A stretch of DNA of 64,000 nucleotides, from positions 3,492,288-3,556,287 of the forward strand of contig OZ242341.1 in NCBI GenBank assembly GCA_965208545.1, given 5' to 3'. The DNA comes from Candidatus Poriferisocius sp. Its GTDB lineage: Bacteria; Actinomycetota; Acidimicrobiia; Acidimicrobiales; Bin134. Below, in pieces: positions 1 through 43,166 of the stretch; the first letter of the stretch is position 1, and every line of letters begins with the position of its first letter. Both the position numbers and the translations under genes were made by a program. The notes under the pieces are model-generated. The model was not told the origin of the DNA and searched no databases. It saw only the letters and a list, made by a program, of their open reading frames with translations.

Positions 1-73
1 TCGGTGGCAATTGCGATTGTTTCCCCTTTAGGTCGTCGGTCAGATTGCTGGTGTCCAGGTCACTCGACGCTGT

Positions 74-469
74 TCATGTCGGATCAGTCTCGGAGCGGCT
101 GGCTCCTTTTGCCCTGCGGTGCTCGCTGCCCCATAGGTCGACGTCGAGAGCGCATTCGAGGCGGGCGATGGAGTCGGCGTCGGGCCAGGTGATGCCATGG
201 ATGATGTTGGTGATGGTGGTGGGGGAAACCCCTGAGGCCTGGGAGGCCTCCAATCCGGTGATGCGATGAGGATCGCCCGTGGACTTGTATCTGAGGGCTT
301 CCCTGAGGCGCCGGGCGACCGCCTGCATCAAGTGGGCGGTGGGCGGCGCGTCGTCGCTGAGGCAGGCGTAGGGCCATCCGCCGTCTTCGGCCCAGTGGTT
401 CGGCTTCTTCCTGCCACGCTGTCTGGGCACAGCCAAACCATACCGCTGGAATAGCGGCTGGAGAGACAA
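74..469 (-). CDS. XRE-family helix-turn-helix transcriptional regulator (cI-like)
   Basis: 131-aa ORF. The C-terminal segment ITGLEASQASGVSPTTITNIIHGITWPDADSIARLECALDVDLW reads as a typical HTH_XRE domain. It is divergent from the AlpA-like gene across an AT-rich promoter region. Confidence 0.6.
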   Translation of the reverse strand: MSLQPLFQRYGLAVPRQRGRKKPNHWAEDGGWPYACLSDDAPPTAHLMQAVARRLREALRYKSTGDPHRITGLEASQASGVSPTTITNIIHGITWPDADSIARLECALDVDLWGSEHRRAKGASRSETDPT

Positions 470-503
470 TGGCCTTGCTCGGATGCCTTCTTTCGCCCAG
501 GTG

Positions 504-547
504 TTGACTTTTTTTATTTATAAAATATACTGGTGGAGACTTGCAAG
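504..547. promoter_or_regulatory. AT-rich back-to-back sigma70-like promoter candidates
   Basis: Plus strand: TTGACT (504-509), 16 nt, TATACT (526-531). Minus strand: TTGCAA (547-542), 17 nt, TTATAA. This is the only strongly AT-rich patch between the divergent XRE and AlpA-like genes. Confidence 0.35.
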
Positions 548-720
548 CCGGGAGGCCGCACCGGTCTGAGACTTCCCTTCAGTCTCTAGAACCTCTGCAT
601 CGGGACGTCCTCTCGGCTGCAAATCGGGGGGCTGGCGTGCTGGCCGGGTTCCGGAAAGGGAGCCCGGCTGCATGCCGGCCCGCAAAGCTCGCCGACAGCG
701 GAGCCCGGACCGGGATGCAC

Positions 721-799
721 GGTGGCCCACGCTGGCCCACTGTCCTCACACCCGGCCGGCTAGGACAGCACCTGTCCTAGGGTGGCCCACGCCGGCCCA
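721..799. promoter_or_regulatory. Operator-like architecture: 19-bp direct repeats flanking a perfect 9-3-9 palindrome
   Basis: GGTGGCCCACGCTGGCCCA (721-739) and GGTGGCCCACGCCGGCCCA (781-799) match at 18/19 positions, 60 bp apart. CTAGGACAG-CAC-CTGTCCTAG lies between them at 760-780. An extra TGTCCT half-site is at 741-746. The whole element sits about 55-130 bp upstream of the AlpA-like start. Confidence 0.4.
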
Positions 800-852
800 G
801 GTGCAATCGGAGCCGGCGATTGAGAAGAGAAGCAAGGGAACAGGAGGAATCA

Positions 853-1047
853 ATGGAAGGTGAAGTTCAGATCCTGCGAATCGGCCAGGTGCTGTGCATG
901 ACGGGCCTGTCGAAGACGACGCTGTGGAGGCGTGTGCGTGCCGGAGAATTCCCCGCTCCGGTGCGCCTAGGCGGGCCTCGCAGCCGGGCTGTGGGTTGGC
1001 GGCGTGCTGATGTGGAGCGTTGGATCGGCTTGCTGGACGCTGCGTAA
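853..1047 (+). CDS. AlpA/excisionase-type (MerR-superfamily) HTH DNA-binding protein
   Basis: Sequence MEGEVQILRIGQVLCMTGLSKTTLWRRVRAGEFPAPVRLGGPRSRAVGWRRADVERWI matches the AlpA/Xis HTH_17 pattern. AGGAGG at 843-848 precedes the ATG at 853. The ORF track starts earlier, at 820. Confidence 0.7.
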   Translation: MEGEVQILRIGQVLCMTGLSKTTLWRRVRAGEFPAPVRLGGPRSRAVGWRRADVERWIGLLDAA

Positions 1048-1490
1048 GCGCTGAGGCCGCCAGGTGTGGGACCACCCCTGGCGGCCTCCTCTCAATCGGT
1101 GTGTCAATTGATCGAGGAGAATCAACTCTATCCCTACCTAAGACTAAGGCGCCCTTTGGCGAGGGGACCGGGAATTCAAGATGGCGCGTGGAACTGCAAT
1201 CTCATCGCTGCCGCTCACCACAGCCGTTCCACGACGACTTCCGCGCCCAGACCGCAGCCGGCTCACCGGGGCGACCGTTCCCGAATGCTGAAATCGCAAG
1301 ACCGAAAACGAGAGGATCCGCATGGCTTTGCAACCGACAACTCCGCTGACTGCGTGCTCCCGGGCAATCCGAAGGATGTGGCCTCTCCGCCAAGATCTTC
1401 GCCGCTCCTATCCCAAAACCAGACTGCGGCTCCTAAGGTGCGGGAGACCGCTGTTCGCATTCGGCACCGGAAAGCGGGGCAGTTGCGGCC

Positions 1491-3242
1491 ATGGAGGGTG
1501 AAGCAGCGCCCCGCAAAGCGGATCGCCGGGTTTTGGTGTGCGATGGAGTGCGGGCCGTGTTCGCCCGCCGGACGGACGGCCTGTGGAGCTTGGCGAACGA
1601 GGCGGAGTTGGCGGTGTTGGAGGGTTTGGGCGGGCCGTCGGAGCCGATTAGCCGCCTTCGGGGGATGGGGGCGGCGCTGGAGGCCGGTGTGGCGGGTCCG
1701 GGTGACATCGCCGAGCTTGGCCGCTGCCTTCGGCGTGTGGCGGCGAGCACAGAGGTGTTCGAGGCGAGGGTGCCCCCGCATCTGGCAGCAGCGGTTACGG
1801 TCGCGTGCGCGTGGTGGGACCACTACGCAGCGGCGGAGTGGCTTGGCTGGGCGGTGTCGGCGCGCCTGGAGAGCAACCTGTCGGCCGAGACGGGGGTGGG
1901 GCCGGGCTGGCTGGGCTGGGAGATCAATGCGGGGCTTCGGCCGAGAAGGGCTTGGTGGAACGGGTGTGGGTGGCTGGCGGGCCTCGGCGAAGGGTTTTGG
2001 GAGCGGCTGGCCTGCCACCGCGACGAGGCCGTGCGCCTGTCGGCCGAGGCCAGCGACCCCGACACCTCCCCGGCCCGGTTGAAAGAGATGGCGAAATGGC
2101 CGCTTTGGGAGGTCGCCGATCTGGTGTGCTCGCATCCGCGCACCCCGGCAGGGGCGTTGAAGCACCTGTGCCGGTTTCACACCCAGCATCGGCCCGTGTA
2201 CCGCACAGCGCAGAACGCCTCGGCCGACCCAGCGGTGCTGCGGTGGCTGTTCAGGGGCCGGTATCGGGGGAACTCCGGGCTGGTCGGGGATCGGGTCCTG
2301 TGGCTGTTGGCGGTGAACCCGAACACGCCCCGTGACGTTTTGGGGCGGCTGTCGCGCTCTAAGGACAGCGGCGTGTTGAGCTGGGTGGCCTGCCACCCCA
2401 ACGCCGGTCGCCGCACACTTGAGCGCCTCGCCGGGCACCCGCAATGGATTGTGCGCCGCCCCATCGCCTGGAACCCGTCCGCCCCCGACCGGCTCATCGC
2501 ATGGCTCGCCGCCGACAGGCACCGCGGAGTCCGTGCCGTGGTCGCGGAGCGCCGCGGCCTGCCCGGAGATGTGCTTGAGCAGCTGGCCGCCGACCGCAGC
2601 CTTGTGGTGCGCGCCGCCGCGGCGGCCAACCTCCAGTTGTGCGAACACATGGTGCGGCGGCTGGCCGAAGACCCCCATCCCAGGGTGCGCGCCTCCATCG
2701 CCCGCCGGACTGACGCGCCTGAAGATGTGCTGGCCGCTTTGACTGAGGACGCCGATCCCGCCGTCCGGAAGGCCTTGGGGAACAACCCGTCCGCCTCGCC
2801 CGAAGCGGTCGCTTGCCTGGCCGAAGACTCCGACCTCGGGGTGCGAAGGGCGGTATGCGCGCGCCCCGAGGTTCCCGAGGACACCATCGGGCGGTTCGCC
2901 TGTTCCGAGGACGACTGGCTGCGATGGGGCGCGGCAGCGAACACCTCCACCCCGCCCGACGTGCTCGAAGCACTGGTCGGCGACTCCGACAGCCAAGTCA
3001 AAGACGCCGCGGCCCGCAACCCGAACATCGACGAGGCCGTGCTGGAGCGCCTCGCAGCGCACCGCGACAAGTACATCCGCCACTCGGTGGTCGAGAACCC
3101 GTCGGTGCCCGACCGGCTCCTCGAAGAACTTTGCGAGGACGAATGCGCAGTCGTGTTCTCAGCAGCCGCCTACACCCTCCGCGAACGCCGCGCCCAAAAC
3201 GCTGCCCGCGAAAGAGCGGAACCGCTGGTACCTGTCGCATGA
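1491..3242 (+). CDS. Leucine-rich-repeat-variant (LRV)/HEAT-like repeat protein
   Basis: 583-aa ORF. The C-terminal half contains about eleven consecutive ~26-aa repeats of the form NP-x-(T/S/A)P-x-(D/E)-VL-x-x-LA-x-D-x-D-x-x-VR-x-A-(V/A)A. Examples: NPNTPRDVLGRLSRSKDSGV, NPSASPEAVACLAEDSDLGVRRAVCA, NPSVPDRLLEEL. Confidence 0.65.
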   Translation: MEGEAAPRKADRRVLVCDGVRAVFARRTDGLWSLANEAELAVLEGLGGPSEPISRLRGMGAALEAGVAGPGDIAELGRCLRRVAASTEVFEARVPPHLAAAVTVACAWWDHYAAAEWLGWAVSARLESNLSAETGVGPGWLGWEINAGLRPRRAWWNGCGWLAGLGEGFWERLACHRDEAVRLSAEASDPDTSPARLKEMAKWPLWEVADLVCSHPRTPAGALKHLCRFHTQHRPVYRTAQNASADPAVLRWLFRGRYRGNSGLVGDRVLWLLAVNPNTPRDVLGRLSRSKDSGVLSWVACHPNAGRRTLERLAGHPQWIVRRPIAWNPSAPDRLIAWLAADRHRGVRAVVAERRGLPGDVLEQLAADRSLVVRAAAAANLQLCEHMVRRLAEDPHPRVRASIARRTDAPEDVLAALTEDADPAVRKALGNNPSASPEAVACLAEDSDLGVRRAVCARPEVPEDTIGRFACSEDDWLRWGAAANTSTPPDVLEALVGDSDSQVKDAAARNPNIDEAVLERLAAHRDKYIRHSVVENPSVPDRLLEELCEDECAVVFSAAAYTLRERRAQNAARERAEPLVPVA

Positions 3243-3318
3243 CACGACGCAGAACGCTGTTGCCCGCAGCAGCGGGGCCAGGACACGAACGACAACCAGA
3301 TGAGGAAAGGAACAGGAC

Positions 3319-4479
3319 ATGAGCGACGAGCAAGACGAGCAACTGCCCGCAGGCGAGCTGATCGCCGAATCCCAACAGGCGGTGCTGGCCGCGATGCAGG
3401 TGCTCCTGGCAGCGAAAGTCCCGGTGCTTTTGTGGGGCGATCCAGGAACGGGCAAGACCGAGACAATCGAGCGGTACGCGGCCACAGCCGGGTGGCCAAC
3501 GACGACCGTGATCGTCTCGCTGCACGAGCCGACCGACTTCGGCGGACTGCCCGTCCGCACAGACGAAGGGGTGGTGTTCGAGCCACCCGCCTGGGCGCGC
3601 CGCGTGGCTGAGAGCCGGGAACCGCAGTTGGTGTTCTTCGACGAGGTCAACACCGCTCCGCCCGGCGTGCAGAACGCGCTGATGCGGGTCATTCTCGAAG
3701 GCCGGGTCGGCCAACTCGAGCTGGGCCAGGACGTGCGGTTCGTGGCGGCGGCAAACCCGCCCGAGCACAACATCGGCGCGTGGGACCTGTCCGCCCCCCT
3801 CGCCAGCCGCTTCGCCCACTTGAGCTGGCCCGTCTCATTGGACGAGTGGAAGCGCGGCTACCTGTCGGGCTGGCCCGACACCGGCCCGCTCGACATTCCC
3901 ATTGACGCAGCGCCGGACCCCATAGCAGTCGCCGAGCACAAAGCCACCCAGGCCGCGTTCCTCACAGCCAGGCCCGATTTGCTGTCCGCCCCTCCTCGCC
4001 AGGGGATCCCCGTGGGGGGGTTCCCCTCGCCGCGCACCTGGGAGCGCACAGCCCGCTGTTTGGCCATCGCCCACGAAGCAGCGGCCGATGAGGAGACCGA
4101 GCTGCTGGTCGCCGCCTCGCTTTTGGGAACCGGGGCCGCGGCCGAGTACCTGGCCTATGAGCACAATCTGGATCTGCCGGACACCGATCAGCTCCTCGCC
4201 GCCCCGGCCCTATTCGCCTCTTTGGAGCGCTCCGACCAGCGGCACGCCGCGCTCAGCGCGATCGTTGCCCGCGCCGCCGCCCAACCCAGCACAAGGCTGT
4301 GGAAGAAGGCTTTCAAGGTGTGCATCGCCGCGGCGCGCCAGGGAGTGCCCGACATCGCCGCAGCCGCGGCCATGCGCCTCGTCGAAATCAAACCCGCCGG
4401 AGTGGGTCTGCCCCCCGGATACGAGGTGTTCGCCGAAATCGCGGCTCAAATCCCCGTCGATAGTGACCTCGCAGCATGA
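3319..4479 (+). CDS. MoxR-like AAA+ ATPase (AAA_5/dynein-related subfamily)
   Basis: Walker A LLWGDPGTGKTE. Walker B plus sensor region QLVFFDEVNTAPPGVQNALMRVILEGRVG. The stop overlaps the next gene's start (ATGA at 4476-4479). Confidence 0.85.
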   Translation: MSDEQDEQLPAGELIAESQQAVLAAMQVLLAAKVPVLLWGDPGTGKTETIERYAATAGWPTTTVIVSLHEPTDFGGLPVRTDEGVVFEPPAWARRVAESREPQLVFFDEVNTAPPGVQNALMRVILEGRVGQLELGQDVRFVAAANPPEHNIGAWDLSAPLASRFAHLSWPVSLDEWKRGYLSGWPDTGPLDIPIDAAPDPIAVAEHKATQAAFLTARPDLLSAPPRQGIPVGGFPSPRTWERTARCLAIAHEAAADEETELLVAASLLGTGAAAEYLAYEHNLDLPDTDQLLAAPALFASLERSDQRHAALSAIVARAAAQPSTRLWKKAFKVCIAAARQGVPDIAAAAAMRLVEIKPAGVGLPPGYEVFAEIAAQIPVDSDLAA

Positions 4480-5789
4480 CCGCCCAATCCCCGACTCCTC
4501 ATCTCGGCCCCCAACTCGGACGGAGCGGCACGGACACGGAGGGCCGCCAGAAAGTGGCAGCGGCGAGGCTGTGGATCGCCCGGCACCGCCCCTACTATTC
4601 GGCCGCGCTGTTCTCCTGCCCGCTGCTGTTCACCGACCAGGCCGACACGTTCGCCATCGACGAAAAATGGCGCATTCACGTCAATCCGTCCGTCGCCGCC
4701 TCCCTCAGCGTCGAAGAGGCCGCCGGCTCGCTCGCGCACGAGCTGAACCACGCCCTTCGCGGCCATCTCGAGCGGGGCCGCCGCGCCGATGTTCCCATCG
4801 AACTGCACACGGTCTGGAACCTCGCGGCGGACTGCGAGATCAACAACGACCTTCGCGCCGACGACTTCCCCCTGCCACTCAAAGTCGTCTATCCGGAGGA
4901 CTACAGCCTGCCGCCATCAAAGATCACCGAGACCTACTACCGGCTCCTCCTCCAAAGCGCCGAAACCATCGAAATCCCCGCCATCTGCTGCCACTCGGCC
5001 ACCACCGGCCACGACATGCCGCACCCCCAGCCCGGCCTCAGCGCAGCCAGAAGACAACACCTTCGCCGCACGACCGCCCAGGCGATCCTAGACCACCAAA
5101 ACCAGCACGGCTGGGGGTCGACCCCCGGTGGACTCACCCGGTGGGCCGAACACACCGCCGTCCCGACCGCCGACTGGCGGCGCATCCTCGCCGCCGAACT
5201 GCGACGCGGCATCCAACGCCAACCCGGAACAGGCCACTGGACCTACACCCGCCCGCCACGCCGCCCCCAAAACGGCCCCATCATCGCACCCGGAACCAAC
5301 CAGCCCGCAGCCGATATCGCCGTTATTATCGACACCTCCGCCTCAATGCGCGGAACGGACCTCCAACAAGCCCTCGCCGAGACTCAAGCCGTCCTAAAGC
5401 ACACCGGCGGCCAGCACCCCATCACAGTCCACACCCACGACACCAAAACCCACACCACACAACACATCATCAACGCCAACAGAATCGAACTCGCCGGAGG
5501 AGGCGGCACCGACATGGCCGCCGCCATCCACACAGCCGCAGCCATACGACCCCAGCCCGCCGTGGTCATCGTCATCACCGACGGCTACACCCCCTGGCCC
5601 CCCACCAGACCACCCGGCAGCAACGCCACCGTCATCGCCGTCCTCACAAAACCACAAACTGTCCAACACGTCCCCGACTGGATCACTATCATCACCGCAA
5701 CCGCCCCCGGCCCATTGGCCCTCGATTGCCAGAAGGCAGGTTCAAGACGCTCAGGCCAAGCTCTGCCCCCTCAGAGAGGTTTATCTTAA
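4476..5789 (+). CDS. Putative metallopeptidase (DUF2201_N-like, HExxH) fused to a vWA domain
   Basis: N-terminal LAHELNHALRGH (HExxH). C-terminal MIDAS elements are AVIIDTSASMRG (DxSxS), GGGGTD and VITDGY. The gene is translationally coupled to the MoxR gene. Confidence 0.8.
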   Translation: MTAQSPTPHLGPQLGRSGTDTEGRQKVAAARLWIARHRPYYSAALFSCPLLFTDQADTFAIDEKWRIHVNPSVAASLSVEEAAGSLAHELNHALRGHLERGRRADVPIELHTVWNLAADCEINNDLRADDFPLPLKVVYPEDYSLPPSKITETYYRLLLQSAETIEIPAICCHSATTGHDMPHPQPGLSAARRQHLRRTTAQAILDHQNQHGWGSTPGGLTRWAEHTAVPTADWRRILAAELRRGIQRQPGTGHWTYTRPPRRPQNGPIIAPGTNQPAADIAVIIDTSASMRGTDLQQALAETQAVLKHTGGQHPITVHTHDTKTHTTQHIINANRIELAGGGGTDMAAAIHTAAAIRPQPAVVIVITDGYTPWPPTRPPGSNATVIAVLTKPQTVQHVPDWITIITATAPGPLALDCQKAGSRRSGQALPPQRGLS

Positions 5790-6130
5790 CGCGCCCTTCG
5801 GGCCATCAGCGCCGTTCAAGTCCCGCCATGGCGCAAGCGCCTGACTCAACAGGGCTCGGGCATCGGCCGAATTTCTTCGGAAACCTCCCGCACCAGCGCA
5901 GCGTCATTGCAAGAGCGCCAAGCCATCTGCAGATTTGGTGCCCCAAGGCACGCCGAAGCGAGAATCTCTCCATTTGCCGGTCAACTCGATGAGCCGAGCC
6001 GCCTGCCGGAACTTGACTACTAGCCTGCGCCTAGGGCCTGGCGTGGGTGCTATAGCCGACCAGTGGTGCCATTCATAACCCTGGTCACCGCGGCGCGAGC
6101 GCGCCCACAGATTTCTCATAGCATAACAAC

Positions 6131-6152
6131 AGTGGTAACAAAAGTGGTAACA
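6131..6152. repeat. Two 10-bp direct repeats (AGTGGTAACA) with 12-bp period, next to the tRNA 3' end
   Basis: AGTGGTAACA occurs at 6131-6140 and 6143-6152, about 45 bp from the tRNA-Sec 3' end, in an AT-richer non-coding stretch. Confidence 0.5.
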
Positions 6153-6196
6153 GAAAGCCAACAGACATATATAAGTCCAGGTCACAAGCCTTTACG

Positions 6197-6292
6197 TGGC
6201 GGAGGTGGACGGGAATCGAACCCGCCGGACGGGGATCGCCCGTCCCACCCGCTTTGAAGGCGGGGGAGCCCACCAGGTACTCAGACACCTCC
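6197..6292 (-). tRNA. selC: tRNA-Sec (anticodon UCA), with encoded CCA
   Basis: The reverse complement reads GGAGGTG..CCCGC-CTTCAAA-GCGGG..GGACGGG-CGATC-CCCGTCC..GCGGG-TTCGATT-CCCGT-C-CACCTCC-G-CCA. It has a 7-bp acceptor stem and a 7-nt anticodon loop with U33 and anticodon TCA, the same CTTCAAA loop as E. coli selC. It also has a 7-bp long variable arm, a canonical TTCGATT T-loop and a total length of 96 nt. Confidence 0.75.
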
Positions 6293-6341
6293 CAGGAAGT
6301 GGTCAGCCTACTGCCGTTCGACTTGGTCGGCCCAGGCTTGC

Positions 6342-7898
6342 CTAGCCCACTACCGCCGCGCCCTCCGGCTCGCCCACGCCGCTCATCAGCAGGCCCACCT
6401 GCTCTACGGTGGCATCGGCCCGGTCTACTCGGCCCATCACCGATCCCTCATACATAACTACCAGTCGGTCCGACAGGGCCATCACTTCGTCTAGATCTTC
6501 ACTGATCAACAAGATGGCCTTGCCTTGCGTACGCTGGGTGATCAGCTGCTCGTGGATGTACTCGGCTGCGCCGATGTCGATGCCCCGGGTGGGCTGGGCC
6601 ACCAGCAGCATCTCGGCATTGCCGCTGAACTCCCGAGCGATCACCACCTTCTGGATGTTGCCCCCCGACAGCTTGCGGGTGAGGGTGCTGGTGTTTGGCG
6701 TGCGAATCGAATAATCGCTCACCAGTTGCTTGCCGCGGGTCTCGATGGAGCTAAGGCTCAACAGTCCGTACCGCGCATAAGGCTGCTGGTCGTAGTCCGC
6801 CAAGATCAGGTTCTCGGCCACAGTGAAGTCGCCGATGCTGCCGTACTTCATGCGCTCTTCGGGTACATAGGCCAGGCCCATCGACCGCACCTGCTTGGGA
6901 GTGGGGGTTTTCACCGGATGGCCGTCGATAGAGACTTCGCCCGACTCGATCTCCCGCAGCCCGACGATGGCCTCGGCCAATTCTCGCTGCCCGTTGCCCG
7001 ACACTCCTACGATGCCCACGATCTCACCGGCCCGCACGTCGATGTTCACATCGCGTACCGCCAGCTCCTCCCGGTCGCCCCTAACCCGGAGATTCTTCAC
7101 CTCCAGTTTGGGATCGCCCGGTTCCTGTTCGGCAAGGGTGCGGGTGAATTCCACCGGGCGTCCCACCATCATCATGGCCAGCGACTCCCTGCTGGATTCT
7201 GCCGGGGTGGTGCGCCCCGAGACCTTGCCGTCACGCAGCACCGTGATCTCGTCAGAGATCTCCATCACCTCGTTCAGCTTGTGGGAGATGAACACCAGTC
7301 CTCTTCCATCGGAGCTGAGCTGTCGGAGGGTGACGAATAAATCGGAAACCTCGGGCGGGGTCAGCACCGCGGTGGGCTCGTCCAGCACCAGCAGTCTCAC
7401 GTTTCGGTACAACGCCTTAACGATCTCGGCCCGCTGCCGCTCTCCGACCGCCATCTGCCAGATATAGGCATCGGGATCGACGTGCAGGCCGAACTCCTCA
7501 GATACTTCTCGGATGCGTCTACGAATCGGCTGGAGGTTGGTCAGACTGAGCGGAGTGCCCAGCCCCAGGGCCACGTTCTCGGCCACGGTCAGGGTGTCCA
7601 CCAACATGAAATGCTGGTGAATCATGCCGATGCCGGTCTGAATCGCCACTGAAGGTGAATCAATGTTCACCGGCGTGCCGTCGAAGGCGATCGATCCCTC
7701 GTCGGGCTGGTAGAGCCCATAGAGGATCTTCACCAGCGTGCTCTTGCCCGCTCCGTTCTCCCCCAGAAGGGTATGAACCTGACCCGGCAGCACCGTGAAG
7801 TCAACGTCTTCGTTGGCCACCACGCCGGGGAAGCGCTTGGTAATACCGCGCATCTCCAGCATCGGTGCTGGCCTCGGCGCTGCCGAGTCAGTATTCAT
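6342..7898 (-). CDS. ABC transporter ATP-binding protein, duplicated-ATPase type (BMP/sugar-nucleoside class)
   Basis: Two nucleotide-binding domains are present. Walker A motifs are GENGAGKST and GVSGNGQRE. Signature motifs are LAVGERQRAEI and LSGGNIQKVVIA. Walker B motifs are LLVLDEPT and LLVAQPTRGID. Confidence 0.9.
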   Translation of the reverse strand: MNTDSAAPRPAPMLEMRGITKRFPGVVANEDVDFTVLPGQVHTLLGENGAGKSTLVKILYGLYQPDEGSIAFDGTPVNIDSPSVAIQTGIGMIHQHFMLVDTLTVAENVALGLGTPLSLTNLQPIRRRIREVSEEFGLHVDPDAYIWQMAVGERQRAEIVKALYRNVRLLVLDEPTAVLTPPEVSDLFVTLRQLSSDGRGLVFISHKLNEVMEISDEITVLRDGKVSGRTTPAESSRESLAMMMVGRPVEFTRTLAEQEPGDPKLEVKNLRVRGDREELAVRDVNIDVRAGEIVGIVGVSGNGQRELAEAIVGLREIESGEVSIDGHPVKTPTPKQVRSMGLAYVPEERMKYGSIGDFTVAENLILADYDQQPYARYGLLSLSSIETRGKQLVSDYSIRTPNTSTLTRKLSGGNIQKVVIAREFSGNAEMLLVAQPTRGIDIGAAEYIHEQLITQRTQGKAILLISEDLDEVMALSDRLVVMYEGSVMGRVDRADATVEQVGLLMSGVGEPEGAAVVG

Positions 7899-7919
7899 AC
7901 CTTGCTATTCGGCTGAGCG

Positions 7920-9998
7920 TTACTGCCCAGTGGAGATTGACCCGTCGGACAGGCCGGCGATCGTCGCCTCGGCTGAGGCCAGCACGTCGGCGGGGATGTC
8001 CATGGCGTCGTTGAACTGGATCTCCAGTCCTCCGCCATCGAAGGTCATGATGAAGGTAGTGCCACCCAAGGTTCCGCCCTTCACCTGGTCGACCACCTCA
8101 GAGAGGATGACCTCCCAGCGGTACACCTGCGAGGCCACCACGATGTCATCGCCAAGTGCGGTCTGGTTGGCCTGGGTGCCGAACCACAGCACGCCGTTCT
8201 CCTGAGCCACTCCGGTGGCGCCCACCACCATCTGGGCCGAACCGGTCAGCACGTCGGCGCCGGCGGAGATGTGCGATTGGGCAGCTTCCGCGGCCAGCGC
8301 TACGTCGGCAAATGAACCGGTGTAGACGATGTTGACCTCGACGTCGGGATTCTGCGCCGTGGCACCGGCGGCGAACCCGTCGACATAGAGCTTGGCGTCG
8401 CCCACCTCTATCGGGCCGATCACGCCGATCACGTTGCTCTCTGTGAGCTGAGCGGCCACTACGCCGTTGACGTAGCCACCGAGATCGGAGCGAACCGAGT
8501 AGGAGTTCACGTTGGGAAGACCGAAGGTGTCGACCGCGGTCCCCCAAGCGAACGATACATCGGGGAAGTCCGGAGCGATCTCCTGGAGCGGGCCGCCGTA
8601 CTGGGAGCCGTGGGCGATGACCAGGTCGTAGCCATCTTCGGCATAGCCCCGAATTGCTGCGCCCGCATCTTCCACGATGAATGTGCCGTCGGTGATGGCA
8701 AATTCGCTGATGTCCCCAGAAGCCAATAGGGCATTCACCGCGTCGAACATGCTCTGGGTGAATGCCAGGTCGTTGCTCGCGCTCGGTGCCACTACCGCCA
8801 CACGGAACGGTGCCGGCGGTGCCGGCGGGGGCGGGGGCGTGTAACTGGTCGCGGCCCGGGCTTCGGCGAGCCATGCGTCGACGGTGTCGCGGTTGTCGGC
8901 GATCCACTCGGCGGCGTGGCGGTTGACATCAGCGGTGGTGTTCTCACCGCCGGTGTCGTAGCGCGCGTTCTGCAGTGCGATGTCAACCACGCTGATCTTC
9001 ACCTGCTCCAGCAGCGTCGCCGCCGCCGGGTTCTCGACAAGGAAGTCGTTGTTGGCCGTCACCTGGATGTCAGCGGTAATGAGGAGGTTGCACGGATCAT
9101 CTGTGCAGACATCGGTGCCGAGCAGGGTGGGCGCACCCCCGTCTATCGACAGCCACATGGCCTGGTCACCAGGCCCGATGTGGTTCGTATAGAAGCTCGG
9201 GCTCCACGTGTACGCGATGAACGGGGTGCCGCTGCCAGCGCGGTCGACTGCGTCGGCGAAAGTGGCGTCGTAGCCGCCCACCTCGACCTGCTGGACCCTG
9301 CCGGTCCAACCCTTGTCTTCAATCAGGCCCGCAATGAACAGGTTGCATCCCCAACCGTCGGGGCACCCATAAATCTGGAGCACCCCATCACCGGGCTCAA
9401 TGTCGGCCGCCTCGTACAGCTCGAACAGATCCTCGTCACCCACGAGCTGATCAAGAGTTCTGATGCCGTGCTCTTCCACCAGCGACTTGTTGGTCAACAA
9501 GCCCTCGATGCCGCCGCGCTCAGCCTCAAGGCCCACCTTCGACACGTGATCGCTCACCAAAGAGCCATCGGGCATCTCGCCCGCAATGAACGGGTCGTGG
9601 TTCGGATACCAAGAATTGGCCCAGAAATCGAACTCGCGCTCAGCCATAGCCACGTACGCGTTCGAAGGCGCAAGCTCAATATCCGCAGGCTCGCTCACGT
9701 CATAGCCCAGCTCCTCCAACAGATGGTGATAGATAGCCGCCTGGAAATAGCCAGTGCTCCAGTTCGCCCGAGCCATCGTCACACTGACACCCTCACCAGG
9801 CGTCATATTCACCTCATCAGCCGCCGGAGCATCATCAGCCGCCGGAGCATCCTCCGCCGGGGCGTCATCAGCCGCCGGAGCATCCTCCGCCGGCGCAGCC
9901 CCCGGCTCGTCATCGTCATCATTGCCACAAGCAGCAACAACCAGCCCGAAGACCAGAAAAATAGCTAGCAAAACTCTCCAAAGGTTTCGCTCTCTCAT
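7920..9998 (-). CDS. Chimeric lipoprotein: OpuAC/ProX-type betaine-binding domain fused by a poly-Pro linker to a BMP-family (PnrA-like) binding domain
   Basis: Signal peptide plus lipobox LVVAAC-GNDDDD. An Ala/Asp/Pro linker follows, then a 331-aa OpuAC-like unit (ARANWSTGYFQAAIYHHLLEELGY...FWANSWYPNH). Next is the linker TSYTPPPPPAPPAP, then a BMP-like domain (FRVAVVAPSASNDLAFTQSM...GVIGPIEVGDAKLYVDGF...). Confidence 0.85.
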   Translation of the reverse strand: MRERNLWRVLLAIFLVFGLVVAACGNDDDDEPGAAPAEDAPAADDAPAEDAPAADDAPAADEVNMTPGEGVSVTMARANWSTGYFQAAIYHHLLEELGYDVSEPADIELAPSNAYVAMAEREFDFWANSWYPNHDPFIAGEMPDGSLVSDHVSKVGLEAERGGIEGLLTNKSLVEEHGIRTLDQLVGDEDLFELYEAADIEPGDGVLQIYGCPDGWGCNLFIAGLIEDKGWTGRVQQVEVGGYDATFADAVDRAGSGTPFIAYTWSPSFYTNHIGPGDQAMWLSIDGGAPTLLGTDVCTDDPCNLLITADIQVTANNDFLVENPAAATLLEQVKISVVDIALQNARYDTGGENTTADVNRHAAEWIADNRDTVDAWLAEARAATSYTPPPPPAPPAPFRVAVVAPSASNDLAFTQSMFDAVNALLASGDISEFAITDGTFIVEDAGAAIRGYAEDGYDLVIAHGSQYGGPLQEIAPDFPDVSFAWGTAVDTFGLPNVNSYSVRSDLGGYVNGVVAAQLTESNVIGVIGPIEVGDAKLYVDGFAAGATAQNPDVEVNIVYTGSFADVALAAEAAQSHISAGADVLTGSAQMVVGATGVAQENGVLWFGTQANQTALGDDIVVASQVYRWEVILSEVVDQVKGGTLGGTTFIMTFDGGGLEIQFNDAMDIPADVLASAEATIAGLSDGSISTGQ
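8851..9943. repeat. Copy A of the ~1-kb identical repeat (OpuAC-domain unit plus N-terminal linker)
   Basis: 8851-9815 matches 11372-12336 at offset 2521. 8857-9943 matches 12371-13457 at offset 3514. No nucleotide differences were noticed, and sense and antisense ORF translations are identical. Confidence 0.9.
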
Positions 9999-10206
9999 TG
10001 GTAACCCTCCAATTTAAGTCAAGCTTGGCCCGCCTCAGCGCGCGCCAACCCGCCTAGGGGCCACACCCTAAACCAAACCAGGCTTGAACGCTAGAGACTC
10101 CAAGAAGAACGTTCCAGACTGATACGGGGTCCGTTCCTGCTCCTCGTTAGGGGAGCGCGACCAATTCCTGAACGGCCGACTGGGCCTTTTGTGGTAGAAG
10201 TCGTTC

Positions 10207-11235
10207 ATGACGATCGCTTCCGAACAAGCTGCCGCCCGCACCTCCTCCCGGTCAGACGAGCAGCGGCTCATGGACGGGATCTACTGGTATGGCATTCCGA
10301 CGCTGTTCCGCTGCGAGTACGACCCCGACCCCCAAAACGCCGACATCGCCCTTGTGGGCGTGCCCCATAGCACCGGCAACGGCACGACCCAGCGCGACCA
10401 ACATCTTGGCCCCCGGGCCGTGCGGGACGTCTCAGCCATCGGCAGGCGGGTCCACGGCCAGTTCGGCATCGATCCGTGGGAGATGTGCCGCATCAACGAT
10501 CTGGGCGATGTGCCGTTGTCGGAGGGCAACAACAACGAGCGCTCCATCGAGATGATCACCGATTTCTACCGGTCGATCGACGAAGCCGGGGCGCGGCCGG
10601 TGTCCATCGGCGGCGACCATTCCATCACCGGGGGCATCCTGCAGGCCATCGGTGGCCATGAGGCCAACCTCACCGGAGGCGAGCGGGCCTGCCTGCTGCA
10701 CTTCGACGCCCACACCGACGCCTTTCACAACATCCCCCACTTCATGGGAGCCATCAAGTCGGCCGCCCACTGGGCCAGCTATCTGGTTACCGACGGCCAC
10801 GTCGACGCCGAGCACAGCGTGCAGGTCGGCATTCGGGGCAACACTCGCAGCCTCGACTGGCTCGAGCCCAGCTACGCGCTCGGTTACGAGGTGATCAAGA
10901 AGTCCGACTACGACCAAATGGGCGCCGAGAGGGTGATCGAGACCATCCACGAACGCATCGGCGACCGGCCGGTGTACATCACATTCGATCTCGACTGCCT
11001 CGACCCGACGGTGGCACCGGGCGTGGCCAATATCGAGGCCGGCATCGACGGCTTCGGGATGGACCAGGCCATGGAGCTCATCCGCTCGATGCGGGGCCGC
11101 AACGTGATCGGCGGCGACGTGGTATGCCTGATGCCGACGGTGGACTCACCCAACCAGATCACCAGCTACCGCTCGATGTCGGTGATGTTTGAGATCCTCA
11201 GCCTGATTGCCGACCGAAACTTCAACCGTCCTTAA
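10207..11235 (+). CDS. Ureohydrolase (arginase/agmatinase/guanidino-acid hydrolase family)
   Basis: Mn-binding motifs are LHFDAHTDA, GGDHSITGGILQA and ITFDLDCLDP, with GGDVVCLMP near the C-terminus. Confidence 0.85.
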   Translation: MTIASEQAAARTSSRSDEQRLMDGIYWYGIPTLFRCEYDPDPQNADIALVGVPHSTGNGTTQRDQHLGPRAVRDVSAIGRRVHGQFGIDPWEMCRINDLGDVPLSEGNNNERSIEMITDFYRSIDEAGARPVSIGGDHSITGGILQAIGGHEANLTGGERACLLHFDAHTDAFHNIPHFMGAIKSAAHWASYLVTDGHVDAEHSVQVGIRGNTRSLDWLEPSYALGYEVIKKSDYDQMGAERVIETIHERIGDRPVYITFDLDCLDPTVAPGVANIEAGIDGFGMDQAMELIRSMRGRNVIGGDVVCLMPTVDSPNQITSYRSMSVMFEILSLIADRNFNRP

Positions 11236-11291
11236 GCTTCCGCATTCACTCCCGCAGGCGTGCCTACCAATCCCACGCTTCCGCACGCGGT

Positions 11292-11319
11292 GAGGGGCGG
11301 GGCCAAAGCCCCGCCCCTC
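11292..11319. terminator. Bidirectional GC-rich hairpin terminator between convergent genes
   Basis: GAGGGGCGGGGC-CAAA-GCCCCGCCCCTC forms a perfect 12-bp stem with a 4-nt loop. It lies between the ureohydrolase stop (11235) and the SBP stop (11365). There is no clear T-tract. Confidence 0.55.
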
Positions 11320-11364
11320 CTTCGTCCTTCAAGCCCTAAGGCCTGATTTCGAGCGCTTGAAACG

Positions 11365-13524
11365 TCAGCCTGCGGCCCGGGCTTCGGCGAGCCATGCGTC
11401 GACGGTGTCGCGGTTGTCGGCGATCCACTCGGCGGCGTGGCGGTTGACATCAGCGGTGGTGTTCTCACCGCCGGTGTCGTAGCGCGCGTTCTGCAGTGCG
11501 ATGTCAACCACGCTGATCTTCACCTGCTCCAGCAGCGTCGCCGCCGCCGGGTTCTCGACAAGGAAGTCGTTGTTGGCCGTCACCTGGATGTCAGCGGTAA
11601 TGAGGAGGTTGCACGGATCATCTGTGCAGACATCGGTGCCGAGCAGGGTGGGCGCACCCCCGTCTATCGACAGCCACATGGCCTGGTCACCAGGCCCGAT
11701 GTGGTTCGTATAGAAGCTCGGGCTCCACGTGTACGCGATGAACGGGGTGCCGCTGCCAGCGCGGTCGACTGCGTCGGCGAAAGTGGCGTCGTAGCCGCCC
11801 ACCTCGACCTGCTGGACCCTGCCGGTCCAACCCTTGTCTTCAATCAGGCCCGCAATGAACAGGTTGCATCCCCAACCGTCGGGGCACCCATAAATCTGGA
11901 GCACCCCATCACCGGGCTCAATGTCGGCCGCCTCGTACAGCTCGAACAGATCCTCGTCACCCACGAGCTGATCAAGAGTTCTGATGCCGTGCTCTTCCAC
12001 CAGCGACTTGTTGGTCAACAAGCCCTCGATGCCGCCGCGCTCAGCCTCAAGGCCCACCTTCGACACGTGATCGCTCACCAAAGAGCCATCGGGCATCTCG
12101 CCCGCAATGAACGGGTCGTGGTTCGGATACCAAGAATTGGCCCAGAAATCGAACTCGCGCTCAGCCATAGCCACGTACGCGTTCGAAGGCGCAAGCTCAA
12201 TATCCGCAGGCTCGCTCACGTCATAGCCCAGCTCCTCCAACAGATGGTGATAGATAGCCGCCTGGAAATAGCCAGTGCTCCAGTTCGCCCGAGCCATCGT
12301 CACACTGACACCCTCACCAGGCGTCATATTCACCTCGACAGCCTCGGGAGGCACCCAGGGTCCGGCGACGCGGGCTTCGGCGAGCCATGCGTCGACGGTG
12401 TCGCGGTTGTCGGCGATCCACTCGGCGGCGTGGCGGTTGACATCAGCGGTGGTGTTCTCACCGCCGGTGTCGTAGCGCGCGTTCTGCAGTGCGATGTCAA
12501 CCACGCTGATCTTCACCTGCTCCAGCAGCGTCGCCGCCGCCGGGTTCTCGACAAGGAAGTCGTTGTTGGCCGTCACCTGGATGTCAGCGGTAATGAGGAG
12601 GTTGCACGGATCATCTGTGCAGACATCGGTGCCGAGCAGGGTGGGCGCACCCCCGTCTATCGACAGCCACATGGCCTGGTCACCAGGCCCGATGTGGTTC
12701 GTATAGAAGCTCGGGCTCCACGTGTACGCGATGAACGGGGTGCCGCTGCCAGCGCGGTCGACTGCGTCGGCGAAAGTGGCGTCGTAGCCGCCCACCTCGA
12801 CCTGCTGGACCCTGCCGGTCCAACCCTTGTCTTCAATCAGGCCCGCAATGAACAGGTTGCATCCCCAACCGTCGGGGCACCCATAAATCTGGAGCACCCC
12901 ATCACCGGGCTCAATGTCGGCCGCCTCGTACAGCTCGAACAGATCCTCGTCACCCACGAGCTGATCAAGAGTTCTGATGCCGTGCTCTTCCACCAGCGAC
13001 TTGTTGGTCAACAAGCCCTCGATGCCGCCGCGCTCAGCCTCAAGGCCCACCTTCGACACGTGATCGCTCACCAAAGAGCCATCGGGCATCTCGCCCGCAA
13101 TGAACGGGTCGTGGTTCGGATACCAAGAATTGGCCCAGAAATCGAACTCGCGCTCAGCCATAGCCACGTACGCGTTCGAAGGCGCAAGCTCAATATCCGC
13201 AGGCTCGCTCACGTCATAGCCCAGCTCCTCCAACAGATGGTGATAGATAGCCGCCTGGAAATAGCCAGTGCTCCAGTTCGCCCGAGCCATCGTCACACTG
13301 ACACCCTCACCAGGCGTCATATTCACCTCATCAGCCGCCGGAGCATCATCAGCCGCCGGAGCATCCTCCGCCGGGGCGTCATCAGCCGCCGGAGCATCCT
13401 CCGCCGGCGCAGCCCCCGGCTCGTCATCGTCATCATTGCCACAAGCAGCAACAACCAAAGCAATTGCTGCAAACAGTGCAAACCAAACCTTCCAATGCTT
13501 CTTCATAAGCATTTTTCCCTCCAT
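11365..13524 (-). CDS. Lipoprotein with two tandem, identical OpuAC/ProX-type betaine-binding domains
   Basis: Signal peptide plus lipobox LVVAAC-GNDDDD. The 331-aa unit EVNMTPGEGVSVTMARANW...DAWLAEAR is then present twice in frame, with a 993-bp period. Confidence 0.85.
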   Translation of the reverse strand: MEGKMLMKKHWKVWFALFAAIALVVAACGNDDDDEPGAAPAEDAPAADDAPAEDAPAADDAPAADEVNMTPGEGVSVTMARANWSTGYFQAAIYHHLLEELGYDVSEPADIELAPSNAYVAMAEREFDFWANSWYPNHDPFIAGEMPDGSLVSDHVSKVGLEAERGGIEGLLTNKSLVEEHGIRTLDQLVGDEDLFELYEAADIEPGDGVLQIYGCPDGWGCNLFIAGLIEDKGWTGRVQQVEVGGYDATFADAVDRAGSGTPFIAYTWSPSFYTNHIGPGDQAMWLSIDGGAPTLLGTDVCTDDPCNLLITADIQVTANNDFLVENPAAATLLEQVKISVVDIALQNARYDTGGENTTADVNRHAAEWIADNRDTVDAWLAEARVAGPWVPPEAVEVNMTPGEGVSVTMARANWSTGYFQAAIYHHLLEELGYDVSEPADIELAPSNAYVAMAEREFDFWANSWYPNHDPFIAGEMPDGSLVSDHVSKVGLEAERGGIEGLLTNKSLVEEHGIRTLDQLVGDEDLFELYEAADIEPGDGVLQIYGCPDGWGCNLFIAGLIEDKGWTGRVQQVEVGGYDATFADAVDRAGSGTPFIAYTWSPSFYTNHIGPGDQAMWLSIDGGAPTLLGTDVCTDDPCNLLITADIQVTANNDFLVENPAAATLLEQVKISVVDIALQNARYDTGGENTTADVNRHAAEWIADNRDTVDAWLAEARAAG
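11372..12336. repeat. Copy B of the identical repeat (C-terminal domain of the tandem SBP)
   Basis: See copy A. The junction with copy C is the 34-bp unique segment 12337-12370. Confidence 0.9.
12371..13457. repeat. Copy C of the identical repeat (N-terminal domain plus linker of the tandem SBP)
   Basis: See copy A. Identity with copy A extends through the Ala/Asp/Pro linker and lipobox and stops inside the signal peptide. Confidence 0.9.
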
Positions 13525-13614
13525 AGTTGTTTTCTCCCGCCAACGGAGAAATGCCTGAAGCTGGCAATCAGAACGCTAGTTGAATGGTCCCAAGGTCACA
13601 AGAGCCGCCCCGGT

Positions 13615-15936
13615 TTACCCGATGTCGGCCGTTGCTCCTTCCGGCTCATCGACAGAGACATACACCTGTGATCGACCGAATTTCGTCAGCACACCGGCCG
13701 TGCTCGCCATGAGGAGGAACCCCGCGACCAGGCAAATGAACGCTCCTGCGCCGCTAGCGAACTTGAGATCGGCCACCCTGAGCAGCGACGCGATCCACGC
13801 CGACGCCACAACCATCAGACTGACGCCGACGCCTGCAACCACTGCGTTCCAGCGCCGTCGCCTTTGCTCATTGCCACCGAAGACCCCGGCAGCAGGTAGC
13901 ACACAGGCGATGCCGACGATGCCGAAGGCGATAGCGAGATATCCATACTTGCTGCTGTCGCCAGCAAAGCCGTCAATGACGATCTTCTCGGTCCGTTGAG
14001 CCTCGCTGTACAGTGCGATGATCTCTTGAGCTATACGAGCTTCGACTGCTGGATCATCGGTATTCTCTGCTTGCTGCTCCAGAGCCGAAACTTGTGCCTG
14101 AAGCTCTGGTGAGACAACGGACTCGACGCGCTGATCGAAGGACCATCCCGAGAACCCAGCTATGACAATCAGCGCCGCAACAAGAGCAACCACACCGATT
14201 TGACGGTACGAAACGCCAGCTCTCAGCGGGGTGCGGGCTGCATAGGGTGCCTCCCTAAGCCAGGCCAGTGCGCCCAGGGTCGCTACCACCCCGCCCACAA
14301 TGGCGACCCAAGGACCGACTCCCATGCTATGTGTGACGTTGGCCGATGCTGCCGGCGCCCAGACATAGGCGATCGCCGCAGCCAGGGACCCAACGGCAAG
14401 CACTGCGACACCATTTGACCCAAACAGGCGAATATCTCCGCCTGGTCGTCTCAGATTGGTCACAACCGCAGCAAGGATCAACAAGGCGAAGCCGAGCACC
14501 ATGATGCCGTAGAAGGATCCACCGGTTGCATCCAAACCACGGAAGCTACGGCCTGCTAGAGGATTGGAAAGCAGCGCGATCTCATCCCCAATTTCTGCAA
14601 TGACCGCGAGTGTCTCTTCGTCCGTCACCCCCTCAGCCCCCGCCGCGACGATCACGGCATTTATCTGGGCATCGAGCACGGCAATCTCTTGGGCATGTTC
14701 GACGGGCGGGTCGACACTCGCTTCCTGAAGCTCGACCATCCCAGGGGACCTCACGGGGTCAACCTCGACGTACTCGTATCGCCCGGTGTCAATCAACCTG
14801 GCATAACCGGAAATCCTTCCCGAGTCACTCCCCCATGGCAAGAACACGGCAACAACAGCAACGAGTGCGCCGGCGGCGACGATTGCCAAGAAGCGGCGCT
14901 CGGCGGCCGACAGTGGAGCCGGGTGGCTTCTCGTCTTGGCCACGACGCCGATCGACGATGCCTGAGGAAGCAGTGCCTCGGGATCGCGACGATGGGCCCA
15001 GGCCCGGCGGATGCGTGTTAAGAGGTTTTGGCCATCACTCTCCTCAGTTTGAGAGATGCGGTCGAGCACCACTGCAACCATGAACAGAGCCAGACCGCTT
15101 GAAGCGGCTAGAGCAACGTCTAGTGCCTGCACCGCCCGAAAAACCTGCAAGCCCAATCCGCCCGCACCCATGATGGCCGCGATGCCCAGCATGGAGATAG
15201 ACAAAAGCAACGTCTGGTTTAGTCCGGTCATGATCGCGGGACGCGCCAGTGGAAGCTGGACATCTAGCAGCACGCGCCACTCGGGGGCCCCGTAGGCCCG
15301 ACTGGCCTCCACTACATCCGCGGGAACCTGTCTGACTCCAAGGTTGGTGAGACGAATTAGCGGCGGGAGGGCAAACACCATGGTGACCATCGTGGCCGGT
15401 TCGGTACCGATACCGAAGAAGAAGATGACCGGCAGCATGTACACAAACGCATGGACAACCTGCATCGCGTCGAGCACAGGTCGCACGGCATTCCACACTC
15501 CATCGAATCGGCCACAAAGGACACCGAGGGGAATGCCGATAAGGGCGCAGAGTGCGACGGCGACAATGATCATGCCCACTGTCAGCGCTGTGTCATCCCA
15601 GTATTCAATGCCGAGCAGTCCGCAGCCAGCCAACGCCAACGCGACGAACCCGCCGACCTTCACGTTGCGGGCCAGCGTGCCGATCACGAAAAAGATGAGG
15701 CAAACCGCGATCCACGGCATGTCGGTGATCTCCCACCAAGGATGGTGATCTGGGCTATCGACAAAGTTGCGGAACAGGAAAGTAAATGGCCACTCGATGA
15801 TGTCGAGCAGCCAGCCGAGGTTGAGGTCGATCCAGTTGACCATCTGCTTGACCCATTCGCCGAACGGAATCGTCCACTGGTCGAGGACCTCGTTGTCGGC
15901 AATACCGGGGGACTCCGACTGGGCCAGCAGGCTCAC
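13615..15936 (-). CDS. proW: ProW/OpuAB-type ABC permease with a ~440-aa C-terminal multi-TM extension
   Basis: The permease core is ...GIPLGVLCGRFDGVWNAVRPVLDAMQVVHAFVYMLPVIFFFGIG...EASRAYGAPEWRVLLDVQLPLARPAIMTG.... The likely GTG start at 15936 overlaps the proV stop (GTGA). The ORF-track start at 16044 lies inside proV. Confidence 0.8.
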   Translation of the reverse strand: MSLLAQSESPGIADNEVLDQWTIPFGEWVKQMVNWIDLNLGWLLDIIEWPFTFLFRNFVDSPDHHPWWEITDMPWIAVCLIFFVIGTLARNVKVGGFVALALAGCGLLGIEYWDDTALTVGMIIVAVALCALIGIPLGVLCGRFDGVWNAVRPVLDAMQVVHAFVYMLPVIFFFGIGTEPATMVTMVFALPPLIRLTNLGVRQVPADVVEASRAYGAPEWRVLLDVQLPLARPAIMTGLNQTLLLSISMLGIAAIMGAGGLGLQVFRAVQALDVALAASSGLALFMVAVVLDRISQTEESDGQNLLTRIRRAWAHRRDPEALLPQASSIGVVAKTRSHPAPLSAAERRFLAIVAAGALVAVVAVFLPWGSDSGRISGYARLIDTGRYEYVEVDPVRSPGMVELQEASVDPPVEHAQEIAVLDAQINAVIVAAGAEGVTDEETLAVIAEIGDEIALLSNPLAGRSFRGLDATGGSFYGIMVLGFALLILAAVVTNLRRPGGDIRLFGSNGVAVLAVGSLAAAIAYVWAPAASANVTHSMGVGPWVAIVGGVVATLGALAWLREAPYAARTPLRAGVSYRQIGVVALVAALIVIAGFSGWSFDQRVESVVSPELQAQVSALEQQAENTDDPAVEARIAQEIIALYSEAQRTEKIVIDGFAGDSSKYGYLAIAFGIVGIACVLPAAGVFGGNEQRRRRWNAVVAGVGVSLMVVASAWIASLLRVADLKFASGAGAFICLVAGFLLMASTAGVLTKFGRSQVYVSVDEPEGATADIG

Positions 15937-20415: not shown

Positions 20416-20417
20416 GG

Positions 20418-22691: not shown

Positions 22692-22693
22692 GG

Positions 22694-24964: not shown

Positions 24965-24986
24965 GGGACCAGAAGATAGGCGATGG

Positions 24987-38163: not shown

Positions 38164-38167
38164 ACCG

Positions 38168-43164: not shown

Positions 43165-43166
43165 CA

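Follow-up and report, generated by a model that had tools for sequence, protein, structure and literature searches.

The locus described here raises the question of what kind of DNA adjoins the 3' end of a selenocysteine tRNA gene (tRNA-Sec, selC) and how that DNA came to lie there. We analysed a stretch of 64,000 nt (64 kb) of contig OZ242341.1, hereafter the window, whose host is a Poriferisocius-like acidimicrobial symbiont of a sponge or coral. A preliminary description of this DNA had placed a 96-nt tRNA-Sec gene with anticodon TCA and a long variable arm near the left end of the window, and had proposed that everything 3' of it belongs to an island without a visible integrase. Our sequence comparisons support the view that positions 1-6196 belong to a lineage-specific island at the tRNA-Sec 3' end and form its tRNA-proximal part. 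The island is probably an integrase-derived remnant. We rank integrase-mediated insertion followed by loss of the integrase as the most likely history, above a distant integrase, a hotspot of homologous recombination and a chromosomal rearrangement, and we assign a probability of roughly 60% to arrival by integrase-mediated insertion with an integrase that has since been lost or lies very far away.

ARAGORN found a single tRNA in the 64-kb window, a tRNA-SeC of 96 nt with anticodon tca on the minus strand (6197-6292). Rfam RF01852 matched 6201-6292 of the same strand over its full model (1-91) with 67.5 bits, compared with a gathering score of 47 (E=1.3e-11), and its alignment showed an extended 6-bp D stem, the long variable arm and two non-canonical pairs at the base of the acceptor stem. 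Both methods therefore bore out the tRNA of the preliminary description, and neither called it tRNA-Ser or a pseudogene. Canonical pairing in the acceptor stem stops after 7 pairs, where U-C and C-U mismatches come next, and the T stem can be extended from 4 to 6 pairs (by G-U and G-C), which keeps 13 stacked pairs; the fold could be a 7/6 arrangement instead of the textbook bacterial 8/5. Pfam searches, which we ran over all major open reading frames (ORFs) of the window, found none of selA, selB and selD within the 64 kb.

We used the ABC transporter ATPase gene 5' of the tRNA as an anchor to fetch the orthologous loci of related genomes, and obtained 14 island-less Poriferisocius-like contigs (L023, L024, L148-L153 and L156-L161), in all of which ARAGORN verified tRNA-Sec. 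The gene order was the same in 14 of 14, namely ABC ATPase, tRNA-Sec, a convergent sigma-70 gene, a hypothetical gene, NadE, two GlnA and GlnE, with about 30-210 nt between tRNA-Sec and the sigma-70 stop codon (~30 nt in most). These relatives have the sigma-70 and NadE/GlnA genes in place of the window genes, and homology of the window to the island-less loci stopped at position 6199, in the last bases of the tRNA (...CCTCCGC). The locus is thus polymorphic for presence or absence, with 14 island-less contigs on one side and the window and a close relative, L001, on the other, and the breakpoint lies at the tRNA 3' end. A scan of metagenomes with the 3' half of the tRNA returned 120 loci, 29 of which have the same sigma gene ending 7-176 nt off. 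Because the adjacency of tRNA-Sec and sigma-70 was found both in the 14 relatives and in these 29 metagenome loci, we regard it as ancestral and widespread, and the island would take the place of the relatives' short spacer and of their convergent sigma-70 gene. Since the tRNA proved genuine and the relatives do not carry the window genes beside it, the island reading stands.

The end of the tRNA gene also differs between the two groups. CCA is encoded at the tRNA end of the carriers (the window, L001 and the metagenome contig L074), which reads ...CCTCCGCCA, and it was absent in 14 of 14 island-less relatives. Apart from this end, the tRNA-Sec sequence was 100% identical in L001, L023, L024, L074, L148-L153 and L159, and that of L156-L158 was the same over the 96 positions, except for a single base printed as 5' flank. 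This complete identity held among lineages whose flanks diverge by 8-19%, and it lends indirect support to a functional selC.

Some side observations concern the relatives. The pairing of tRNA-Sec with a sigma-70 gene of RpoD type was strongly conserved in contigs of 31-75% GC, in convergent or co-directional orientation; it was seen in the 29 metagenome loci (e.g. L028, L045, L097 and L135) and, with the sigma gene upstream, in 8 loci (e.g. L042 and L034). The spacer of L159 is enlarged (about 210 nt vs about 30) and contains, about 125-150 nt past tRNA-Sec, an inverted piece of sequence similar to the T-arm and acceptor of a tRNA (reverse complement GGCTTCGATTCCCGTCCAGC), which may be the scar of a past integration. 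The spacer after the tRNA in L156-L158 contains TCAGACGGCCAAC twice, a degenerate duplicate of the sigma-70 3' end.

We compared the window with L001 (Ca. Poriferisocius sp., NZ_CBDBOM010000002.1), which is co-linear with window positions 1-10137. Positions 1-6196 were 99.4% identical with zero gaps and the tRNA was 100% identical; past the tRNA, identity was 87.8% in the 49 nt 5' of it, 91.7% in the ABC gene and about 84% in the substrate-binding protein (SBP) gene. Because identity steps down at the tRNA, the island side shares a much more recent ancestor than the chromosomal side, and, judged from this alignment, the divergence boundary between the two carriers falls inside the 96-nt tRNA. 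Within the flank, divergence is greatest in the SBP region, where L001 has three SBP copies. Tandem arrays of paralogues in the window comprise two fused OpuAC/Bmp substrate-binding proteins (7920-13524) and three consecutive sulfatases of ~760 amino acids (aa) each (18142-25039).

A different insert at the same site was found in L074, in which the identical tRNA-Sec is followed by 6.4 kb of inserted DNA and then by the sigma gene. The products of this insert are a DUF4062 protein, a restriction enzyme of the GmrSD type, a member of the beta-lactamase family and a FitA/PIN (VapBC) toxin-antitoxin pair; neither an integrase nor an att repeat was found in it. The first ~78 nt after the tRNA were 62% identical between the window and L074, compared with 38-47% further in, and the BLAST alignment of the two reached 70 nt beyond the tRNA. 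Their junctions share TGACCTGG, an ATATAT run and a GTTACCACT-like tandem repeat with a period of 12, which begins at +47 in the window and at +49 in L074. Only 6 tandem repeats of this type occur in the whole window.

Tyrosine integrase genes were located 0.15-2.6 kb from the tRNA-Sec 3' end in seven metagenome loci (L029, L050, L059, L114, L121, L123 and L129); Pfam confirmed Phage_integrase in L123 and L129, and L123 also has an Arm-DNA-binding domain. Tandem repeats of 9-12 nt occur at fixed offsets from tRNA-Sec; the offset is +49 in L123 and L072 and +98 to +101 in L129, L059, L029 and L065. The junction repeats of the window may be arm-type integrase sites, in which case the segment that bears them would be an attL relic. 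Two further observations touch this subject. A 4714-nt metagenome contig, L111, holds a 41-nt 3' fragment of tRNA-Sec that ends in CCA and has no 5' part, with no integrase on the contig; this is an attR- or attP-like copy from a tRNA-Sec-integrating element, of a kind not found at the window locus. In L074, a degenerate duplicate of the sigma-70 3' end (9535-9606, 72 nt, 78% identity) flanks the VapBC cassette, and the sigma-end duplicates of L074 and L156-L158 look like footprints of earlier insertions at the sigma end or in the spacer.

The part of the island beyond the left edge of the window was read from L001 and from L154, another stretch of the same contig, which served as a stand-in (99.4% identical) for the window's own contig, for whose MoxR and XRE proteins exact look-ups retrieved no record. 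L001 adds 6.7 kb and L154, joined through the HTH (helix-turn-helix) gene of L001, a further 9.9 kb, and no boundary was met; the island in the near-identical contig is at least 22.7 kb long. Outward past the window genes follow about 1.7 kb without recognisable genes and then a 966-aa PKD-repeat protein. Further out lie small hypothetical genes, the AbiEii-like/HTH gene pair, a gene of ATP-grasp type, one for an AAA_14/DUF4143 protein and two for giant cadherin/fn3 proteins. No sigma gene and no tRNA fragment turned up in these 22.7 kb next to the tRNA, and the L154 sequence left of the window matched none of the island-less loci fetched. The contig ends 4.9 kb past the part examined. A search for the carrier's own sigma gene through the sigma-70 orthologue cluster led to its representative, L026, and to two further members; the loci of these two are island-less.

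As the preliminary description had observed, the window contains no integrase that could be found by Pfam or by tblastn with two tRNA-Sec-linked integrases, and no recombinase gene lies next to the tRNA, as Phage_integrase was absent from the ORFs of both the window and L154. The direct repeat of the tRNA 3' end that the preliminary description had proposed to look for did not appear: no copy of at least 13 nt was found in the window with up to 3 mismatches, or in L001 or L154 by shared k-mers, none of which reaches the distal end of the island. Of the set that characterises actinomycete integrative and conjugative elements (AICEs), int-xis with rep and an FtsK-like tra gene, only an AlpA-type gene was present across the 22.7 kb. 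Scans of IMG/VR with the tRNA end and with the MoxR protein of the island gave no matches and no link to a provirus. The preliminary description had left a choice between an integrase beyond the left edge of the window and a decayed, immobilised island. Because no integrase was found in the 16.5 kb that L001/L154 add left of the window, a decayed or immobilised island is favoured over an integrase just off the edge, although the two are not fully separable.

The AbiEii-like/HTH pair has paralogous copies within one sample (L154 9336-10438 and L155 9324-10438). Each pair consists of a ~222-aa protein with a weak AbiEii nucleotidyltransferase match and a 145-aa HTH protein with more than 2000 homologues at 70-87% identity, and is probably a toxin-antitoxin-like module. 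An 87% relative of the L001 HTH gene was tried as an extension route and proved to be such a paralogous pair elsewhere.

In the history that we favour, a tyrosine integrase would have had its core site in the 3' part of tRNA-Sec, and the island would have entered by site-specific recombination. The incoming DNA would have restored the tRNA end, now with CCA, and left tandem 10-nt repeats in an attL-like arm. The integrase would then have been lost, or would lie at an unusually distant far end, and therefore the island would be fixed, or mobile only with an integrase supplied in trans.

Several observations weigh against this history. Neither an integrase nor attR, a relaxase, FtsK or Rep was found in the 22.7 kb adjoining the tRNA on the L154 contig, and this length stops short of the far boundary, so that a simple insertion is not proven. 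The distal cadherin/fn3 giants and the PKD protein resemble ordinary surface proteins of a symbiont, not genes of a mobile element. Sequence homology between the window/L074 junctions and those of L123/L072 was considered and rejected, as no convincing alignment was obtained and the architecture alone matches. Compared with the island-less L148, the right flank is a mosaic, with 89.8% identity in the ABC gene, 94.6% in the SBP gene and 99.0% in the region of an arginase-family gene; exchange by homologous recombination thus occurs often in this region, and the 99.4% tract could be one of its products. Moreover, the related genome L026 has its sigma gene beside Oxidored_FMN, amidohydrolase and acyl-CoA dehydrogenase genes, without tRNA-Sec, so rearrangements occur at the tRNA-Sec/sigma junction too.

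The mosaic flank lends itself to an alternative in which the site is a flexible hotspot that never depended on an integrase, cassettes being swapped by homologous recombination in the flanks with the 96-nt tRNA as one crossover anchor. Such a hotspot would fit the different cargo of L074 at the same site and the finding of no integrase or att repeat in either island (window/L154 and L074), and the degenerate sigma 3'-end duplicates in L074 and L156-L158 suggest repeated turnover. However, the tract boundary lies within the 96-nt tRNA and divergence is back within the next 49 nt, the CCA comes with the island, and the carriers share a junction segment whose tandem repeat has an offset as in integrase-bearing tRNA-Sec elements. 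Recombination anchored in sigma would also retain a distal sigma gene, as in L074, but L154 has none for 22.7 kb. We think this alternative improbable, although it is the most credible of the competing explanations.

The same lack of a sigma gene for at least 22.7 kb, with no far end found, would be expected if an inversion or translocation with a breakpoint in the tRNA-Sec/sigma spacer had joined an unrelated region containing the MoxR module to the tRNA. The sigma gene of L026, joined to metabolic genes without tRNA-Sec, and the symbiont-typical distal genes point the same way. Against such a rearrangement stands the step from 99.4% to 91.6% at the tRNA between two carriers, which is unexpected for an old shared inversion; in addition, the junction segment is common to L074, where DNA has demonstrably been inserted between tRNA-Sec and sigma, the tRNA end has switched from no CCA to CCA, and L154 left of the window resembles no island-less locus fetched. 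We consider a rearrangement very unlikely. A large element that is intact and still mobile, with its integrase and attR at the distal end more than 22.7 kb from the tRNA, would account for the AlpA-type excisionase-like gene and for the 99.4% identity of the carriers in diverged backgrounds, which suggests recent movement, and would fit a contig that ends 4.9 kb past the examined part. Yet the integrase genes that we found at tRNA-Sec loci lie 0.15-2.6 kb from the tRNA, the 22.7 kb hold no conjugation, replication or phage structural genes, and IMG/VR has no match for the tRNA end or the MoxR gene, which makes this the least probable of the explanations.

Several known systems resemble this island. 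The selC-associated pathogenicity islands of Enterobacteria include LEE, SHI-2, PAI-I of uropathogenic Escherichia coli (UPEC) 536 and SPI-3, and have a P4-like tyrosine integrase or a pseudogene of it directly beside selC, usually with a direct repeat of the tRNA end. Islands linked to a tRNA that have lost their integrase are common. The present island resembles selC islands in that the accessory DNA starts exactly at the tRNA-Sec 3' end, varies between strains and carries cargo unrelated to selenium metabolism; it differs from them in having no integrase within 22.7 kb and no detected repeat, in its high-GC acidimicrobial symbiont host and in its MoxR-vWA cargo. Like the actinobacterial tRNA-targeting elements (pSAM2-type AICEs and actinophage prophages) and L123 and L129, the island is inserted at the 3' end of a tRNA gene, an end that the incoming DNA would have resupplied. 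L123-type elements and AICEs also have an attL-side arm with short tandem repeats and a small gene of AlpA/Xis type. Unlike AICEs, the window island has no int, rep, FtsK-like tra or nudix genes, and its repeat GTTACCACT differs from the repeat GGTCACAG of L123 and L072, whose junctions do not align with it. Integrase-less flexible islands and defence hotspots are similar in their fixed position between a tRNA and a housekeeping gene, their strain-variable cargo and their lack of a recombinase, but here the breakpoint lies within the tRNA gene, the tRNA end is altered and the junction segment is conserved with different cargoes.

These findings document tRNA-Sec as an island site outside Proteobacteria, in uncultured acidimicrobial symbionts of sponges and corals. 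The tRNA/sigma-70 junction offers a natural experiment, being empty in 14 relatives, occupied by the MoxR-vWA module in the window and by defence genes in L074, and the locus is a convenient marker for gene flow among symbiont populations. The island reveals no new mechanism.

The features of the locus are collected in Table 1. Pfam upheld the XRE and AlpA regulators and the MoxR-vWA module that the preliminary description had listed left of the tRNA. AlpA is the only classical mobile-element regulator present; its gene is called as 64 aa in the near-identical contig, and among the loci with a MoxR module it was found in L001 only. The translations of the three-gene operon show intact Walker A, Walker B, HExxH and MIDAS motifs. 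A permissive Rfam scan and a promoter and terminator scan of positions 1-6500 gave nothing further, and the non-coding spacer at 5790-6118 contains no Rfam match and no integrase remnant. The operon (1491-5789) has 68.4% GC, compared with 61.9 +/- 2.5% in equal-sized windows elsewhere (maximum 66.2%), so the claim of an AT-richer flank did not hold: the operon is GC-richer, and the non-coding 5790-6196, at 58.7% GC, is unremarkable because 18% of same-sized windows are equally low or lower. The atypical composition expected of an island is therefore present as high GC in the operon, together with the AlpA and XRE regulators.

Table 1. Features of the tRNA-Sec locus, its island and a second variable block of the window.
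Feature	Position	Strand	Basis and remarks
XRE-family HTH regulator	74..469	-	Pfam HTH_3 1.7e-07; called as 118 aa (74-430) in related contig
AlpA-family small DNA-binding protein, excisionase/regulator type	853..1047 (possible start 820)	+	Pfam Phage_AlpA 8.9e-13
LRV/HEAT-repeat protein, first of three-gene operon	1491..3242	+	Pfam LRV 6e-33, LRV_2 1.2e-21
MoxR-type AAA+ ATPase (AAA_5)	3319..4479	+	Pfam AAA_5 1.8e-12; Walker A GDPGTGKT and Walker B FFDE intact
Protein with N-terminal zincin-like peptidase domain (HELNH) and vWA/MIDAS domain (DTSAS)	4476..5789	+	Pfam DUF2201_N 8.6e-24, DUF2201 1.3e-17, VWA_2
Non-coding spacer, vWA gene to junction segment	5790..6118	.	No ORF with Pfam match
tRNA-proximal junction segment, attL-like	6119..6198	-	CCAGGTCA at 6177-6184; ATATAT run about 6166-6172
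Tandem 10-nt repeat AGTGGTAACA in junction	6131-6140 and 6143-6152	-	Period 12; begins +47 from tRNA end
tRNA-Sec (selC) gene, anticodon UCA, CCA encoded	6197..6292	-	ARAGORN and Rfam RF01852; insertion point of island
ABC transporter ATPase, conserved 5'-side flank, outside island	6342..7898	-	Pfam ABC_tran; syntenic in all island-less relatives
AbiTii	36998-37741		Second variable block
ResIII helicase	40204-43164		Second variable block
N6/N4 DNA methylase, type III restriction-modification-like	42327-45725		Second variable block
DUF2806	45709-46719		Second variable block

We searched for relatives of the MoxR protein and found 22 related loci in metagenome-assembled genomes (MAGs) of Acidimicrobiales (Candidatus Poriferisocius, Aldehydirespirator and Poriferisodalis; sponge-type genera), with two copies of the module in at least 3 MAGs. 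The triad of LRV, MoxR and vWA-zincin genes recurs in all acidimicrobial loci, often with extra LRV paralogues, and the LRV gene is co-linear with MoxR and vWA in L002-L016. An XRE homologue lies upstream of the module in four loci (L004, L006, L007 and L010). Elsewhere the module has mixed neighbours, among them housekeeping genes, transposase genes of IS110/DDE type and genes of defence type such as KAP NTPase, Fic and Nmad2. In these symbionts, the XRE gene together with the LRV/MoxR/vWA-zincin operon makes up an accessory module that recurs in multiple copies, and the triad can be marked as accessory equipment that is exchanged horizontally and lies outside core metabolism. A general link of the module to tRNA genes was considered and dismissed, as a credible tRNA lay within 10 kb in 4 of 19 loci, which by our own estimate is about chance level.

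The nearest solved relatives of the MoxR protein are midasin AAA domains; a sequence search of the PDB found no relative of the vWA-zincin protein. In PADLOC-DB 2.0 neither the LRV nor the vWA protein had a match, the MoxR protein had weak generic AAA matches only and AlpA a 25-bit match to mad1. No NCBIfam model named the operon proteins, and the Pfam match to bpMoxR (18.9 bits) was below the 27-bit cut-off. Published MoxR-vWA ternary conflict systems use VMAP, iSTAND, FtsH or a beta-propeller as their third component (Kaur et al. 2020, PMC7159879). As in those systems and in the MoxR-vWA pairs RavA-ViaA, NorQ-NorD and CbbQ-CbbO, an AAA_5 MoxR gene is here translationally coupled to a gene for a vWA/MIDAS protein, and, as in the ternary systems (PMC7159879), a third gene is conserved in a module that occurs in multiple copies and variable genomic contexts. 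Unlike in these systems (PMC7159879), the third gene matches only LRV, LRV_2 and HEAT, and the vWA protein bears an N-terminal DUF2201_N zincin domain. By analogy, the vWA/MIDAS protein would most likely bind a target, which a hexameric MoxR would remodel or release by ATP hydrolysis, the attached peptidase domain leaving room for processing of the target as well, and the LRV-repeat protein is probably an adaptor or the target of the MoxR-vWA pair. A bolder proposal is that the attL-like segment is a persistent landing pad, at which a clade-wide family of L123-type integrases acting in trans, or recombination between pads, would swap the cargo of the tRNA-Sec/sigma spacer again and again in sponge-symbiont Acidimicrobiia, and that the module is an undescribed class of MoxR-vWA ternary system, expanded in these symbionts and serving host interaction or defence; we consider this quite unlikely.

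In L008, another Acidimicrobiales locus, an LRV-LRV-MoxR-vWA arrangement lies directly upstream of tRNA-Thr and is followed by ECF sigma, Zincin_2 and hpt genes (5433-16486). The ECF sigma/Zincin_2/hpt block also occurs in the window, at 32.5-36.2 kb, without the module. Directly after hpt (35685-36242), the window has a second variable-looking block with a lower GC content of 58.8% (36998-46719), which is probably a defence island. At the right end of the window, positions 52710-62142 contain parB, parA, yidC, dnaN and recF, the neighbourhood of a replication origin, and because of these genes we place tRNA-Sec ~50 kb from the origin.

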